UHGV virus genome: UHGV-0128346
From: a virus
Length of the DNA: 30,017 nt
Reading direction: 5' to 3' (one strand)
A program made the position numbers and the translations under genes. The notes beneath the pieces were generated by a model that saw only the letters and a list, made by a program, of their open reading frames with translations, ran no database searches and had not been told where the DNA came from. This document shows, piece after piece, positions 11,683 to 24,702 of the stretch; within the stretch, counting starts at the first letter, position 1; each line of letters starts with the position of its first letter.

Positions 11683-11740
11683 TTCCTTGCCGCCCGTGCC
11701 TCCCAGCGCGGGCTTTTTTATCCAAAAAATACCCCTCCGG
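11683..11740. terminator. Back-to-back intrinsic terminators sharing a T6/A6 tract (plus-strand hairpin ~11683-11704, minus-strand hairpin ~11721-11740)
   Basis: GCCCG...CGGGC followed by TTTTTT on the plus strand; TACCCCTC-CGGA-GAGGGGTA preceded by AAAAAA on the plus strand, i.e. followed by U6 on the minus strand. Confidence 0.6.
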
Positions 11741-12028
11741 AGAGGGGTATCATACAAGGGGATGACCATGATGCATGGTGCCGGGTGCCTCCCGGTGAGT
11801 CCGGCATCAGCATACGAACCCGCGATTATCCCAGAACTGACTGCTGATTCGCCCCGCCGCTTAGGGGGATTCACCATGCGTTTTTTTATTTACAAACTCT
11901 TCGCCAGACAAACAACCATTAACTGGCTGAATTGTGAGGTATTTCAATTTTTAGAAAACTGACCAACCTCCGCTTATACGCCGGGCATGGAGCGGATACA
12001 AAAAAGCCCCGCAAAAGCAGATCAGAAG

Positions 12029-12319: not shown

Positions 12320-13381
12320 TCACAAAATTGTATTTGCTGATAACATACTGATTTCCTGGATGGTCTGATTAAACCGCTCTGTCTCAAGCTCAACACCTAA
12401 CGCCCGACGCCCCAGCGCCATTGCTGCTTTTATTGTGGAACCGGATCCCATAAAGAAATCAGCAACCAGATCGCCGGGTCGACTACTGGCATTGATTATT
12501 TGCCTGAGCATATCCGCCGGTTTCTCACACGGATGTTTACCCGGGTAGAACTGAACGGGTTTATGCATCCAGACATCGGTATAAGGCACGGAGACTGATA
12601 CGGAGAAATAGCGCCGGAGAGATTTAAACTCATCCAGCAATTCAGAATATTTGCGATTCAGTGAATCATAAGATGCCACCAACTGGTGGTGTGGTTGTTC
12701 CAGTTGTTGTTCCTGAAACTTCTCTGCCGCTATACGGGAAAACAGTGCCTGTAACTTCCGGTAGTCAGCCTCATTCGGCAACTGCCACTGACTGGCACCA
12801 AACCAGTGGGAAACCATATTTTTCTTACCTGTGGCTTCGGCAATTTGTTTTGCCGTTATACCCAGTTCGGCACGAGCATCCCTGAAATACGATATCAGCG
12901 GTGCCATTATGTGCTGTTTGAGTTCCCTTTCTTTTGCCACATAGCCGTCACTTTTGCCGCGATATGGCCCCCGGTAATGTTCAGCAAACAGAACGCGCTC
13001 TGTGGCAGGAAAATATGCGCGCAGACTTTCTTTATTACACCCATTCCAACGTCCGGACGGCTTCGCCCAGATGATATGGTTAAGCACGTTGAAACGTTCA
13101 CGCATCATGATCTCAATATCAGATGCCAGGCGATGCCCACAGAACAGGTAAAGGCTTCCGGCAGGTTTCAACACCCGCCAGAACTGGGCCAGACAGTGGT
13201 CCAGCCACTTAAGGTAATCTTCGTCCCCTTTCCACTGATTGTCCCAACCGTTGGGTTTCACCTTGAAGTAAGGCGGATCGGTAACAATCAGGTCAATGGA
13301 ATCATCAGGCAGGGACTGAATAAAATGCAGGCAATCAGCGTTGATTAAATCAATACTGTTTATTTTTACAGTGTTTTTCAT
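12320..13381 (-). CDS. DNA methyltransferase, beta-class (N6-adenine or N4-cytosine); motif IV DPPY near N-terminus, motif I FxGxG near C-terminus
   Basis: 353 aa; LIVTDPPYF at residues ~31-39 and DFFMGSGST near the C-terminus give the beta-class motif order; no adjacent restriction enzyme recognised. Confidence 0.85.
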   Translation of the reverse strand: MKNTVKINSIDLINADCLHFIQSLPDDSIDLIVTDPPYFKVKPNGWDNQWKGDEDYLKWLDHCLAQFWRVLKPAGSLYLFCGHRLASDIEIMMRERFNVLNHIIWAKPSGRWNGCNKESLRAYFPATERVLFAEHYRGPYRGKSDGYVAKERELKQHIMAPLISYFRDARAELGITAKQIAEATGKKNMVSHWFGASQWQLPNEADYRKLQALFSRIAAEKFQEQQLEQPHHQLVASYDSLNRKYSELLDEFKSLRRYFSVSVSVPYTDVWMHKPVQFYPGKHPCEKPADMLRQIINASSRPGDLVADFFMGSGSTIKAAMALGRRALGVELETERFNQTIQEISMLSANTIL

Positions 13382-14591: not shown

Positions 14592-15344
14592 TTATCTCGT
14601 CACCTTTCTCAATTGTGCTTCAGCGAATGCTTCTTCCTGCCAGCACTTTGTTACCAGTTTATCAATGACGTCTGCATATCCTTTGTACCACTGATAATCA
14701 GTCAGGTCTGGTACCAGCTTCTGGACATGACGTCGTGCCAGTGTGGTCGGTAAACGACTAAACCGGTTTCCATTGCAACGCCCACAAATCTTATAAACAG
14801 GCGCGCCATGAAGCCGGGTTCTTTTTTCATCCAGGACAATGCCTTTACCCTTACACCCTCTGCAAGCCGTGCTGACTTCTCCCTTACCATGGCAATGCTG
14901 ACATAATTCCTTCACCCACTCTTCCTTGATAACAGATTCCCCGCTTCTGGAGTGTTTCACCACTTCGCGCAATACACTATGAAATCCAGTACCAGCACAA
15001 TGCTCACAGCGAGCCTTACTTGCCGCAGACCTGGAATAATCAGCAAAGGCAAAACTCACAAGGTAAGGGATGATCTGTAACCGGGTTTCTTCACTCAATT
15101 TGTTCAATGTCGGGTTATCCATTGCCATCGCGTAATTGAGCAGACCTTCAATCGCAAACTGAGGATCCTGAACACCAACTTTTGCCAGGAATAAGGCAAA
15201 CCCAAGCGGTGCTTTCGACTGCACCATCCCCTGCGCAGCCATCACATCCGTAATCGTTAAACCACCTGAGCCTGTCGCCGGTGCGTCATCGCTCAATTTT
15301 GGAGATTTTGGGGAGTAATATTTTGGTAAGGCTTCAAGGTTCAT
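14592..15344 (-). CDS. Q: Late-gene antiterminator Q (lambda Q family, 250 aa)
   Basis: Matches recalled lambda Q: YYSPKSPKLSDDAPATGSGGLTITDVMAAQGM, FAFADYSRSAASKARCEHCAGTG, C-terminal ...VTR; Cys-rich zinc-binding motifs; same length as the Qin prophage homologue. Confidence 0.85.
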   Translation of the reverse strand: MNLEALPKYYSPKSPKLSDDAPATGSGGLTITDVMAAQGMVQSKAPLGFALFLAKVGVQDPQFAIEGLLNYAMAMDNPTLNKLSEETRLQIIPYLVSFAFADYSRSAASKARCEHCAGTGFHSVLREVVKHSRSGESVIKEEWVKELCQHCHGKGEVSTACRGCKGKGIVLDEKRTRLHGAPVYKICGRCNGNRFSRLPTTLARRHVQKLVPDLTDYQWYKGYADVIDKLVTKCWQEEAFAEAQLRKVTR

Positions 15345-20780: not shown

Positions 20781-20942
20781 AGTGACATCCTCATGTGCGA
20801 ATTTTGAAAACTCACCACATGGGACGCCAATCACAGAGGTGGTGAGACGTACAGGGTTGGCGTAACCGGTCGCACATGACCCCGGCGCATCTTTCGATGC
20901 CCCTGCACGCCCCACCATAATTTGGATGTGAGGAAACGTGCG

Positions 20943-20966
20943 CAAAAAAACCGCTGAAGCGCGGTT
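20943..20966 (-). terminator. tR1-like intrinsic terminator in the early-right operon
   Basis: ACCGC-TGAAGC-GCGGT hairpin followed by U7 on the minus strand. Confidence 0.5.
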
Positions 20967-21376
20967 ATGCGCATGTGCGAATTTCAGGACGCCAATCCCG
21001 GCACCCGCTTTATAAGGTGCCTGAACAGTGTAACGTCCCGGAATTGCAGAATCAATATGCTGGTGGTCCTTCACACTCAACAAAATCACGCCTGAATTTC
21101 CACAAAGGACTAAAGCACTCATGCGGGTAGTCTTTGCGAAGATAGATAACGCGCTGTGTTTCTGGCTCCCAACGAATAACATGGACATAAAGCCCTCTTC
21201 CGTCACGAAACCAGCGGTTAAGTTCCTGCACAACTCGCCCCCCACAGTCAGGTAAAGTTCTCTGTGGTTACTTACAGCCAGGTGATTTGGTAATCTGCAT
21301 TCATGCCGTAACAACAGGTGTTCAGCGACGCTGACCACCAGCTGTTGCGACAAACGGTTATTTGCCGTTAAACTAT

Positions 21377-22268: not shown

Positions 22269-22943
22269 ATGAAAACAGTCCATGACATCCGGCGGTCTAA
22301 CGCCAGAAAACTGAGAGATGGTGTTGGCGGGAATTCTTCCTTTGCCACCATGATTGATCGCGAGCCAACCCAGACCAGCAGGTTTATGGGAGATGGTGCT
22401 ACTAAAAATATCGGTGACAGCATGGCACGGCACATCGAAAAATGTTTCGACCTGCCTGTCGGATGGCTTGATCAAGAACACCAGACAACAAACATCACAA
22501 AAAAACCTGATGTTTCAATTACTAACAAACAAATAACGTTAGTCCCTGTCATATCATGGGTACAGGCCGGAGCATGGAAAGAAGTTGGCTATTCTGAGGT
22601 TGATTTGAGCACAGCAGAAACTTATCCCTGCCCTGTACCCTGTGGCGAAATGACTTATATCTTGCGGGTGATTGGTGATTCAATGATTGATGAGTACCGC
22701 CCGGGAGACATGATTTTTGTTGATCCCGAAGTCCCTGCCTGCCACGGTGACGACGTTATTGCATTGATGCACGATACAGGCGAAACCACCTTCAAGCGAT
22801 TGATAGAAGATGGAACACAGCGTTATCTCAAAGCATTAAACCCAAACTGGCCTGAGCCTTACATTAAGATTAACGGTAATTGCTCTATAATTGGTACAGT
22901 AATTTTCTCAGGAAAACCAAGAAGATACAAAATAAAGGCCTAA
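22269..22943 (+). CDS. cI: cI-like prophage repressor (HTH plus S24 LexA-like autopeptidase)
   Basis: C-terminal half matches the S24 fold of recalled P22 C2 and lambda cI (ISWVQAG, GDSM, PGDMIFVDPE, TFKRL, LNPNWP, INGNCSIIG). Confidence 0.85.
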   Translation: MKTVHDIRRSNARKLRDGVGGNSSFATMIDREPTQTSRFMGDGATKNIGDSMARHIEKCFDLPVGWLDQEHQTTNITKKPDVSITNKQITLVPVISWVQAGAWKEVGYSEVDLSTAETYPCPVPCGEMTYILRVIGDSMIDEYRPGDMIFVDPEVPACHGDDVIALMHDTGETTFKRLIEDGTQRYLKALNPNWPEPYIKINGNCSIIGTVIFSGKPRRYKIKA

Positions 22944-22954
22944 TCAATATTTAT

Positions 22955-22978
22955 AACCTGCTTCGGCAGGTTTTTTTA
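22955..22978 (+). terminator. Intrinsic terminator after cI
   Basis: ACCTGC-TTCG-GCAGGT hairpin followed by T7, 12 nt after the cI stop. Confidence 0.7.
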
Positions 22979-22981
22979 TAC

Positions 22982-23015
22982 TTGACAATGTACCATTGAG
23001 ATACATAATGTATCT
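22982..23015 (+). promoter_or_regulatory. PL-like promoter (TTGACA-N16-CATAAT) with overlapping 17-bp palindromic operator AGATACAT-A-ATGTATCT
   Basis: Consensus-like sigma70 hexamers; perfect palindrome across the -10 element; position corresponds to lambda PL/OL. Confidence 0.6.
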
Positions 23016-23462
23016 AAAAGAAACATGCCACAGGCAAGATTAAACAAAATTTGGTTGTAACACGGCGTATGGCACATGCGTCGTTAGCGGTCTGGGGACG
23101 TTAAAGGGGACAATCCACTCCTTGCTCGGGCAAACAAACCAGGTAGCCGGAATGTGCAAGTCAATGATGATGCTGATAAGACGCCTAACCAGCGTGGCGA
23201 TTCGGTTTGACGCCTGGGAAGAGACCAGGACGCAACGATGAGAGCATTGACGAGCAAGGCATAAGTGCTGGTTCAATTCCAGACAGTCCCATTCAGATGG
23301 GAGGGTTGGGCAGGGAAAAGGTCCGTTCGATTCGGACACCGGCAATGCTCTCAGCGTTGTGGTGAATGCGCAGGCTGATGCGCGAAAGACATTGCAGCTA
23401 TTGCGGAAAAGAGCTGTTCGGCGGGGCAATTAAACGCCCGTATCTGGAGGTTAAAGAACAAA

Positions 23463-23738
23463 ATGAAAGTCCAGATTTTAAACAATAGTGGTGAAGTCGT
23501 TTGGTCATACGACATAGCCGCTCCTGTAGATCAGAGCGGCGATAGCTGGACCAATGGGAAACATCAGATTATGGCTGGAGTTGTATTCTCTTTACGCCGT
23601 GCTTTGGAACAGGCTGAAGTCTTTCCATCAGACCCTGAATGGAAATGGCCTTTTTCTATTTGTCCAAATTCGGAGAGTACATTTCAGAAAATTGGTCAGA
23701 AAGTCGCACTCGAAGAGCATCAGCCAACTGTTTCCTGA
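23463..23738 (+). CDS. Hypothetical protein (91 aa), first ORF of the early-left operon; not N-like
   Basis: ATG with GGAGG 13 nt upstream; acidic, no arginine-rich motif; 3' end overlaps the convergent minus-strand ORF by ~83 nt. Confidence 0.4.
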   Translation: MKVQILNNSGEVVWSYDIAAPVDQSGDSWTNGKHQIMAGVVFSLRRALEQAEVFPSDPEWKWPFSICPNSESTFQKIGQKVALEEHQPTVS

Positions 23739-23901
23739 TTTTTTCAGGTAACTCGTCGGCATCGCAGAAACAACAACGCTCGATCATGTTGAAAGCCGAT
23801 TCGTAGAACTGTTTCTGCTGAGTGTCGCTGAGACAGGAAAAGAGCGACGTTACGATGATTTTATTAATTGCATTATCAAGTTCTTTTTCATCAAAAGTCA
23901 T
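23656..23901 (-). CDS. Hypothetical protein (81 aa) antisense to the early-left operon
   Basis: ATG with AAGGA ribosome-binding site at 7-nt spacing; composition looks protein-like. Confidence 0.4.
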   Translation of the reverse strand: MTFDEKELDNAINKIIVTSLFSCLSDTQQKQFYESAFNMIERCCFCDADELPEKIRKQLADALRVRLSDQFSEMYSPNLDK

Positions 23902-24156
23902 TTGATTTTCCTTTTATGTATACGGGCTTAAAAGGATACCACCGAGCCTGAAGTGGTGAAAAGACAGGCACATAACAGCTAAGTATTTTCAACCAGAGAG
24001 AATCCTTAGCGTTGTGGTGAATGCGGCTCAGCGCACGCGGGTTAAGGTTGAGGCTGACAGTCGACCTTCTGTGGATACCCACCCGCCTGGTGTGCAACCT
24101 TCGCTAGGCACCGGGAGGCACCCGGCACCACAAGTTTATGCTGTGTGTAGTCCTGG

Positions 24157-24203
24157 CGGTACCAGTTTGTACCCTTGCTTCCGGCTGGTACCGTCCTTTT
24201 TTG
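24157..24203 (+). terminator. tL-like intrinsic terminator in the early-left operon
   Basis: 9-bp stem CGGTACCAG/CTGGTACCG with a 19-nt loop, followed by TCCTTTTTT. Confidence 0.55.
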
Positions 24204-24339
24204 CAAAACAGAGAAGAGCATCACCGGACGACGGGCTCATAACCCAATCCATCCGGGCGGCTGCCACCGCAGGTGTTCTTCTCTGTTTTGTGGAGAAACC
24301 AACCGACCTTGCAGGGTCGATATGATGAGGAGCAGCAAA

Positions 24340-24702
24340 ATGGCTAGCGAACGCAGTACTGATGTGCAGGCATTTATCGGGGAGCTGGACGGCGGCGTAT
24401 TTGAAACCAAAATCGGCGCAGTTCTCAGTGAGGTCGCTTCCGGTGTGATGAACACGAAAACCAAAGGGAAGGTCTCACTCAATCTGGAAATCGAACCGTT
24501 TGATGAGAACCGTGTGAAAATCAAACACAAACTCTCATATGTTCGCCCAACTAACCGCGGGAAAATTTCCGAAGAAGACACCACCGAAACGCCGATGTAT
24601 GTCAATCGCGGTGGTCGCCTGACTATTCTGCAGGAAGACCAGGGACAATTACTGACTCTTGCCGGTGAACCTGACGGAAAACTCCGCGCAGCAGGTCGTT
24701 AA
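24340..24702 (+). CDS. Hypothetical protein (120 aa)
   Basis: ATG with GAGGAG ribosome-binding site; first gene after the tL-like terminator and just upstream of the yfdQ-like gene. Confidence 0.55.
   Translation: MASERSTDVQAFIGELDGGVFETKIGAVLSEVASGVMNTKTKGKVSLNLEIEPFDENRVKIKHKLSYVRPTNRGKISEEDTTETPMYVNRGGRLTILQEDQGQLLTLAGEPDGKLRAAGR

Follow-up and report, generated by a model that had tools for sequence, protein, structure and literature searches.

What does the leader of an early-left operon do when it encodes no antiterminator protein? The question is raised by positions 23016-24340 of UHGV virus genome UHGV-0128346, a stretch of 30,017 nucleotides (nt) that we call the window. A first-pass annotation had reported a PL-like promoter here, followed by an interval with no plus-strand open reading frame (ORF) of at least 60 codons up to 23462 and no analogue of N, and had pointed out a hairpin resembling the T-arm of a tRNA. 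These observations hold: the promoter is near consensus (TTGACA-16-CATAAT, 22982-23009, plus strand, 11 of 12 matches), plus-strand ORFs within 23016-23462 encode merely 37-52 amino acids, and the hairpin GTCCG-TTCGATT-CGGAC lies at exactly 23321-23337. We found no gene for an N-like arginine-rich protein directly 3′ of PL, and none of the six ORFs tested in 23016-24702 (PHROG and Pfam) matches an antiterminator family. We find the region to be the untranslated early-left (PL) leader of an N-less lambdoid prophage of the e14/CPS-53 type, made of conserved structured-RNA modules in the order promoter, M1, M2, tRNA-like RNA of the STnc100 type, strong terminator, yfdP. The T-arm-like hairpin is arm P4 of M2, a 131-nt RNA with a four-way junction (23231-23361, plus strand). 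M2 is a conserved, strand-specific RNA structure in a repressor-controlled leader, linked both physically and in structure to a tRNA or tRNA-like unit.

Read 5′ to 3′, the arms of M2 follow the order of the tRNA cloverleaf: acceptor, D region, anticodon arm, variable arm, T arm, acceptor. The closing helix P1 (23231-23249 with 23343-23361) has 19 base pairs (bp) and is possibly longer by two invariant C-G pairs. Its 5′ strand leads into J1/2 (23250-23265, ACGAGCAAGGCAUAAG), a purine-rich single strand containing GG where a D-arm would be, and then into P2 (23266-23284), a T-arm-like hairpin of 5-6 bp with the loop UUCAAUU. P3 (23286-23303), a hairpin that varies in length and sequence much as a class-II variable arm does, is followed by J3/4 (23304-23320, GGUUGGGCAGGGAAAAG) and by P4 (23321-23337), T-arm-like with the loop UUCGAUU, which nearly abuts the 3′ strand of helix P1 across J4/1 (23338-23342, ACCGG). 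The tRNA T-arm signature, tested as a 5-bp stem closed by G-C with a 7-nt loop U-U-C-R-A-N-Y, occurs twice in M2 (P2, GG-UUCAAUU-CC; P4, CG-UUCGAUU-CG), and the loop residues U, U, C, R and A are kept in the 59-97 homologues. Just upstream, the hairpin P0 (CCTGG-GAAGAGA-CCAGG, 23213-23229, plus strand) has compensatory changes in all five pairs, in a part of the alignment that is imperfect.

Comparison of homologues from Enterobacterales phages supports this structure in each of its four helices (59-97 distinct sequences). In an alignment of 59 distinct M2 sequences, 89.2% of cells are paired under the proposed structure, against 35-50% when the 3′ partners are slid; 22 of the 41 pairs have double changes, and the covariation score is 0.286, against 0.128 in shuffles, none of 500 reaching the observed value. 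RNAalifold independently returned M2 helices identical to the proposed ones. The initial homologue scan was baited with P4, and the collection was repeated with a pattern that omits this arm, yielding 97 distinct sequences. Within this set the P4 stem GUCCG/CGGAC is replaced by GUCUG/CAGAC, GUUCG/CGAAC, AUUCG/CGAAU, CUCCG/CGGAG and GCUCG/CGAGC. The single-sequence fold of M2 has a z of -4.5. By contrast, the acceptor pairing that had been proposed around the hairpin, TGCTGGT with ACCGGCA, shows no pairs with double changes, as in shuffles, and conflicts with the covarying P2; we reject it, TGCTGG being the 5′ strand of this second T-arm-like hairpin. The parallel suggestion of a remnant tRNA-like element fails as well, M2 being under strong purifying and compensatory selection.

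The functional strand of M2 is the plus strand, because its frequent G-U pairs would be C-A on the minus strand (one pair of helix P1 is U-G in 33 of 59 sequences) and because the M2 covariance model scores 173.4 bits on the plus strand versus 17.3 on the minus. Length differences in P3 among homologues are 1, 4, 5 and 7 nt, and the minus-strand ORF at 23040-23429 is therefore not kept as a reading frame. Two motifs within helix P1 were considered and discarded. The boxA-like UGCUCU of the 3′ strand is unconserved among homologues (e.g. GUGUACUU), and so pairing, not boxA, is what is selected; the hammerhead-like GAUGAG of the 5′ strand is likewise unconserved. A kissing interaction between the T-loops of P2 and P4 was looked for, and the two loops show no co-variation. 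Searched against Rfam 15 at E ≤ 10, M2 matches no family, tRNA and YrlA included.

How far does this RNA extend beyond the window? A 106-nt hairpin probe has 80-100% identity to unannotated DNA in 79 complete Escherichia coli genomes and in 15 phages of Escherichia, Salmonella, Edwardsiella, Klebsiella and Citrobacter, and the first alignment showed a nearly invariant core broken by a hairpin whose strands change together. Pattern scans for M2 retrieved more than 120 viral contigs. It is present in Stx2a (Shiga-toxin) phages and in species representatives of Brenneria, Yersinia, Citrobacter, Rouxiella, Buttiauxella, Ewingella, Erwinia, Izhakiella and Edwardsiella. Its interior hardly changes between E. 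coli and Yersinia, Erwinia, Edwardsiella or Brenneria, while helix P1 and P3 vary freely; this near-invariance points to a conserved host partner. Comparison with relatives, which the first-pass annotation had called for, also found the junction between M2 and the next unit in related phages.

The genomic context of M2 recurs along with its structure. The nearest upstream ORF on the same strand is an S24/HTH repressor gene in 62 of 97 distinct contexts, and the first ORF 3′ of M2 is YfdP-like or RdgC. About 111 nt 3′ of M2, 100 of 119 distinct contexts carry a CACAAC-like strand that closes a multi-hairpin unit opened by GUUGUGG, the end of the 3′ strand of helix P1. A strong terminator follows in 84 of 119 distinct contexts at a median distance of 202 nt, a count from the looser of two scans, the stricter having detected almost none. 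In SPN1S-type phages and in some others the slot after M2 is occupied by a genuine tRNA-Arg(UCU) whose first four bases lie inside helix P1. A tRNA-Arg also stands 3′ of M1 and a helix P1 hairpin in 14 contexts, Yersinia has a probable tRNA 3′ of M2, and elsewhere the slot holds degenerate tRNA-like sequences whose T-arms are canonical. In SPN1S itself, promoter, M1, M2, tRNA-Arg, hairpin and terminator form a stand-alone cassette antisense to the terminase and portal genes.

The interior of M2 is an accessory element, inserted where a long conserved hairpin has its tip, because leaders of Ayreon and E. coli FAM21845 keep P0 and helix P1 without it: a 33-nt loop replaces the ~90-nt interior, and terminator and downstream genes are unchanged despite its absence. 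Only 23 of 117 distinct leaders with M1 contain the M2 interior.

M1 itself (23062-23212, plus strand) is a conserved, structured, promoter-proximal leader module. It consists of a covarying stem I (CGGCG/CGUCG) with an invariant 11-nt loop UAUGGCACAUG, a long variable stem II and, 3′ of this, an invariant stretch GUAGCCGGAAUGUGCAAG, a third hairpin and GGCGAUUCGGUUUGAC. Its covariance model has a sole match in the window (67.7 bits, 23054-23166). M1 is carried by at least 120 viral contigs in 132 distinct versions, a much wider spread than that of M2, and occurs also in mEp460, cdtI, Stx2c phages, phiV10-like phages and phages P1, P7 and D6. A P0-like loop lies 3′ of 98 of 117 M1 copies, promoter-like sites lie upstream in 43 of 140 cases versus 7 of 140 controls, and the start site is ~45 nt from stem I. 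The invariant loop segment GCACAU (23072-23078) is complementary to an invariant AUGUGC (23154-23159) some 80 nt downstream; their pairing could be a pseudoknot or a long-range helix, and both sides are invariant, hence the lack of a covariation signal. In phages P1, P7 and D6, M1 lies unannotated between trnI and ban (in P1, NC_005856.1 71016-71194; positions 2016-2195 of our extracted locus L307), and an STnc100-core-like sequence (33 bits) is found in the P1 tRNA cluster at 70080-70199 of the same record. The e14 element of E. coli K-12 has neither M1 nor M2, only the STnc100-like or 'ymfH' part being present.

Downstream of M2, the region resolves into a tRNA-like RNA with a terminator and an insertion. 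The tRNA-like RNA resembles STnc100/PasD (23989-24204, plus strand); its tRNA-like core, which the pairing of GUUGUGGUG (24011-24019) with CACCACAA closes, is accompanied by a terminal hairpin CCGGG-AGGCA-CCCGG, and the unit includes the tL-like terminator. The Rfam check that had been proposed for the leader gave no match to tRNA (RF00005, E ≤ 10, 22900-24400) but did reveal this unit, which matches RF02076 at 40 bits (E = 7.7e-7; gathering threshold 47); copies in relatives score 49.1 bits (near-identical locus L003) and 37.5 bits (sal3). The terminator is a strong intrinsic one (24156-24202, plus strand), GGCGGTACCAG and CTGGTACCGTCC flanking an 18-nt loop, followed by TTTTTT. Between it and the yfdP ribosome-binding site is a long hairpin (24206-24288, plus strand; AAACAGAGAAGAGCA paired with GGUGUUCUUCUCUGUUU) that is kept in most relatives and gives a weak, helix-P1-like match to the M2 model (15.3 bits). 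In the window, as in relatives, the end of the 3′ strand of helix P1 (23355-23361) can pair either with CACAACG upstream, in helix P1, or with CCACAAC downstream (24123-24131), in the acceptor-like stem of the next unit, and the two stems are mutually exclusive at the base.

Many relatives (loci L005, L007, L010, L025, L028, L035 and L036) have AGGAGG in the terminator loop, at the position of window 24167-24184, followed after 5-8 nt by AUG or GUG and then UUC. The reading frames after this start differ among phages, one ORF having just 2 codons, and the window copy is without AGGAGG. The arrangement suggests that ribosome binding inside the terminator hairpin may control read-through in those relatives.

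The 18-nt direct repeat, which had been proposed as a regulatory element, has another origin. The 18-mer AGCGTTGTGGTGAATGCG does occur exactly twice (23353-23370 and 24008-24025), both copies before the terminator, and none are expected in 100 shuffles even with 2 mismatches allowed. Copy 1 (plus strand) consists of the last 9 nt of the 3′ strand of helix P1, AGCGUUGUG, and the first 9 nt of the next unit, GUGAAUGCG, so that the repeat is a module junction; in relatives such as locus L005 the same sequence joins M2 straight to the STnc100-like RNA. The tRNA-like unit that begins at copy 1 is truncated after its first hairpin (23368-23383). Between the copies lies a 637-bp insertion, or moron (23371-24007), with two small ORFs: 23463-23738 on the plus strand, the first longer ORF of the leader (91 amino acids, phrog_3195, function unknown, without a Pfam match), and 23656-23901 on the minus strand (81 amino acids, phrog_3311, function unknown). 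Ayreon, Stx2a_1447, sal3 and phiNP are without the insertion and have contiguous flanks, as do F1055 and Kp4866. The insertion also brings a second M2 copy (23948-24023, plus strand), which ends in copy 2 of the repeat and in which the 5′ flank and helix P1 survive and the interior is deleted; the M2 model matches it at 31.9 bits with ~90 nt of interior skipped, and 23924-23976 matches the 5′ flank of a sal3-type M2. Because the flanks are contiguous in relatives, this M2 copy has lost its interior and the first tRNA-like unit is truncated, we conclude that the repeat is a scar of recombination or moron insertion between two leader versions and is not regulatory.

What, then, might M2 do? Our favored reading, to which we assign a probability of roughly 0.38, makes M2 an accessory module that mimics tRNA within a polycistronic non-coding precursor. 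Its two T-loops would present tRNA-elbow-like surfaces to conserved host tRNA-handling machinery such as RNase P or TruB/TrmA. In tRNA the T-loop is locked by G18 and G19, and in M2 G residues from the invariant junction strands would probably lock each T-loop in the same way. Helix P1, at 19-21 bp, would offer a double-stranded processing platform of RNase III size, and the last 6-7 nt of its 3′ strand would double as the 5′ acceptor strand of the downstream tRNA or tRNA-like RNA. Cutting or opening helix P1 would release M2 as a stable RNA and free the shared strand, whereupon the downstream tRNA, tRNA-like RNA or STnc100-type small RNA (sRNA) could fold and mature. M2 would not be the general antiterminator of the operon, because its interior is missing from most equivalent leaders with an identical terminator and genes. 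The reading draws on the tRNA link, namely the genuine tRNA-Arg in the slot after M2 and, in phage P1, the position of M1 directly 3′ of trnI. There is precedent for such handling of phage and bacterial RNAs. The C4 RNA of phages P1 and P7 is cut from its leader by RNase P; YrlA, a tRNA-like RNA, is modified by TruB and DusA (PMC4201824).

Several observations weigh against this reading. M2 is without a CCA end, a 7-bp acceptor stem and a D-arm, and is recognized neither by ARAGORN nor by the Rfam tRNA and YrlA models; the single-sequence minimum-free-energy fold has an alternative pairing in place of P2. The near-invariant junction strands would fit a ligand-binding or RNA polymerase (RNAP)-binding fold equally well. 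Owing to the insertion, the terminator of the window is 835 nt from M2, yet M2 is intact; a mechanism that depends on proximity would therefore be broken in the window. Cleavage of helix P1 by RNase III is a prediction from the length of the helix only.

A different reading, which we consider a possible though doubtful one, is that the leader mediates RNA-only processive antitermination or an anti-Rho effect, put-like in action but non-homologous, with the nascent leader RNA staying on RNAP through the tL-like terminator and the long untranslated leader; M1 would be the likelier actor and M2 possibly a booster. No N-like gene is found among the leader ORFs, a strong terminator stands between promoter and first genes in most relatives, and an untranslated leader of 1.3 kb needs protection from Rho. 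M1 is moreover promoter-proximal, with the enrichment of promoter-like sites upstream described above, and starts with two stem-loops, as put does; in phage P1 it occupies the ban leader and no tRNA-like unit follows, an arrangement suggestive of action in cis, and its near-invariant single-stranded nucleotides would suit binding of a conserved machine such as RNAP. By eye, M1 has in common with putL the ordered words ACGGCG, CAUGCGUCG and CGG(C)AAUG(C)UGC, which we treat as a lead and not as evidence. However, the M1 covariance model and nhmmer find nothing at the HK022 putL and putR sites (locus L013, ~735-812 on the minus strand and ~1950-2025 on the plus strand) or at the annotated put of HK639 (locus L308, 6188-6313), and the M2 model gives nothing significant in the HK022 loci (L012 and L013), put included. 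About 80% of the leaders that are equivalent in other respects lack the M2 interior, and the Shine-Dalgarno sequence and start codon in the terminator loop of many relatives suggest a translation-dependent bypass instead. Of the interpretation in the first-pass annotation, the functional RNA leader, its tRNA-like architecture and the lack of an N analogue are supported; kinship with HK022 put, sought with these models and nhmmer, is not.

We think it unlikely that M2 is a trans-acting tRNA mimic which, once released, sequesters a host tRNA-binding factor as its decoy or sponge, or serves as an anti-defence RNA; an elbow-recognizing enzyme, a tRNA-targeting defence nuclease or a sensor of tRNA fragments such as RtcR would be candidate targets. 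Such a role would fit the two canonical T-loops, the accessory, moron-like distribution of M2, its horizontal spread across unrelated phage types (lambdoid phages, the Uetakevirus SPN1S, and phages of Klebsiella, Citrobacter and Edwardsiella) and the SPN1S cassette that pairs it with a tRNA. Activation of RtcR in S. Typhimurium 14028s requires a cis-acting determinant of Gifsy-1 that lies beside the repressor gene (PMC9879122), a case that bears on M2 by analogy only, the link to RtcR being pure speculation. The loop of P3 is variable, so that M2 offers no conserved anticodon-like loop, and among the flanking ORF families no defence or anti-defence genes are consistently adjacent. Wider in reach, and quite improbable in our estimate, is the proposal that M1, M2 and the tRNA-like unit together form an unrecognized RNA-only control system for the early operons of N-less temperate phages, unrelated to put in sequence and spread from lambdoid and Stx2a phages to the ban leader of phage P1 and to epsilon15-like phages. 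M1 would modify or protect the elongating polymerase, and M2, as a double mimic of the tRNA elbow, would dock a host machine (RNase P, the ribosome or RNAP) and time the release of the tRNA-like sRNA. We give very little credence to the opposite idea, an absence of RNA-level function, with M2 a decaying tRNA pseudogene, the relic of an att site or part of the minus-strand ORF 23040-23429 (129 amino acids, with a weak match to phrog_36251). T-arm-like sequences are typical of tRNA-derived att sites, and some phage annotations call minus-strand ORFs across the region. But M2 is far from int and att, four helices have compensatory changes with a G-U pattern specific to the plus strand, the indels are not multiples of three, and the junction nucleotides are invariant across Enterobacterales families; the phrog_36251 match spans residues 26-76 only and probably reflects the same mis-annotation.

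The window as a whole is a lambdoid prophage that combines an e14-type immunity region with a CPS-53-type early-left operon. Upstream of PL lie a LexA/CI-type repressor gene (Peptidase_S24, 22269-22943) and its terminator (22955-22972), and a perfect 8-1-8 palindrome, AGATACAT-A-ATGTATCT (22999-23015, plus strand), covers the -10 hexamer and is probably the repressor operator. The ORFs of the 1.3-kb interval before yfdP have PHROG matches of unknown function only and no Pfam family; yfdP itself (24340-24702, plus strand) is followed by yfdQ and yfdR. A 103-amino-acid 'YmfH' ORF (24014-24325, plus strand) wholly overlies the STnc100-like RNA, the terminator and the hairpin after it, and YmfH, including K-12 e14 b1142 (ymfH), is probably a mis-annotated non-coding region. 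On the opposite strand are a cro/ymfT-like gene, a CII/YmfL-like gene, isrK and C4 RNAs, a Q-type antiterminator (14592-15344), a DNA methylase gene (12320-13381) and a canonical STnc100 RNA (11720-11908, minus strand; Rfam, 114.5 bits), the last lying downstream of the Q-type antiterminator, between the methylase gene and the lysis genes. Of the two STnc100-type units that the phage has, the late-operon copy is the canonical one and the PL-leader copy is diverged; each ends in a terminator. The isrK (62 bits) and C4 antisense (75 bits) RNAs stand in tandem at 20835-21020 on the minus strand (C4, RF01695, 20835-20922) upstream of a Rha/antirepressor-like ORF, and this tandem is the P1/Gifsy-type RNA-controlled antirepressor module on the PR side. 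ARAGORN finds no tRNA or tmRNA gene in the window.

M2, and apparently M1 too, has no entry in Rfam 15 and no description that we could find in the searchable literature. Rfam scans of the whole window at the gathering threshold, and of 22900-24400 at E ≤ 10, give no match at either module, and full-text searches for their conserved strings returned unrelated primers only; a large catalogue of phage structured-RNA candidates may list them unnamed (PMC10690425). These are two well-supported, uncatalogued RNA structures that are directly testable in E. coli. The leader type is common: over half of the complete E. coli genomes carry some part of it and 79 have M2, which Stx2a phages also possess, and M1 is found in phage P1. 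Early-left expression past strong terminators in N-less lambdoid phages is known only for the HK022-type put, and the present leader type differs. The leader also ties the widespread STnc100/PasD sRNAs of prophages to tRNA-like precursors, and it bears on annotation, since YmfH and several 'hypothetical proteins' called across the region are probably not genes.

How does the leader compare with the systems it most resembles? The put RNA of HK022 binds, while nascent, the zinc-binding domain of the β′ subunit and suppresses termination in cis without protein factors. The present modules share with put of HK022 and HK639 a place in the early-left leader, 3′ of the early promoter and before terminators, of a lambdoid phage without N, and M1 has a two-stem start and some short words of putL. 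Unlike put, which has two stem-loops in ~70 nt, M2 is a four-way junction of 131 nt whose interior is dispensable in most related leaders. Rfam having no put family, membership was judged by similarity to putL and putR (~70 nt, stem I CGGCG..CGUCG, stem II with GGAUGA..CAAUG); by covariance model neither M1 nor M2, nor M1 by nhmmer, shows it, and put-like action is possible, mainly for M1.

STnc100/PasD (RF02076) resembles the unit at 23989-24204 in its multi-hairpin core closed by a GGUG/CACC helix and its terminator, whereas M2 is a separate module upstream of that unit. The STnc100/PasD copies described in print are found near Q or stx, within late regions and outside any PL leader (PMC12370729; bioRxiv 10.64898/2026.05.13.724894). 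C4 of phages P1 and P7, a regulatory RNA that the tRNA-processing machinery excises from a leader through tRNA-like features, offers a precedent; it has no similarity to M2 in sequence or structure, and C4 has a defined antisense target where none is known for M2.

In overall plan M2 parallels the YrlA-type bacterial Y RNAs (RF02553), tRNA mimics of ~110-130 nt in which, as in M2, the two ends pair in a long helix around a pair of nearly invariant stem-loops, one of them a canonical T-arm, with a non-conserved stem-loop in between (Chen et al., 2014; PMC4201824). The RF02553 model, which weakly matches tRNAs of phage P1, does not match M2 at E ≤ 10. M2 differs in that its second conserved hairpin is another T-loop and not a D-arm, and in its location in a phage early leader and not next to an rsr (Ro60) gene: YrlA has rsr within ~4 kb on the same strand, and no TROVE/Ro family is found among the families of the nearest upstream and downstream ORFs of M2. 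Compared with tRNA itself, M2 has a very long acceptor-like helix, no D stem and no CCA, and it carries a T-loop in the 'anticodon' as well as the 'T' position. STnc100/PasD and put being already known, M2 is best filed as a new family among tRNA-mimicking non-coding RNAs and structured phage leader RNAs, one that adds to the few bacterial tRNA mimics a new architecture, two T-arms in one cloverleaf.

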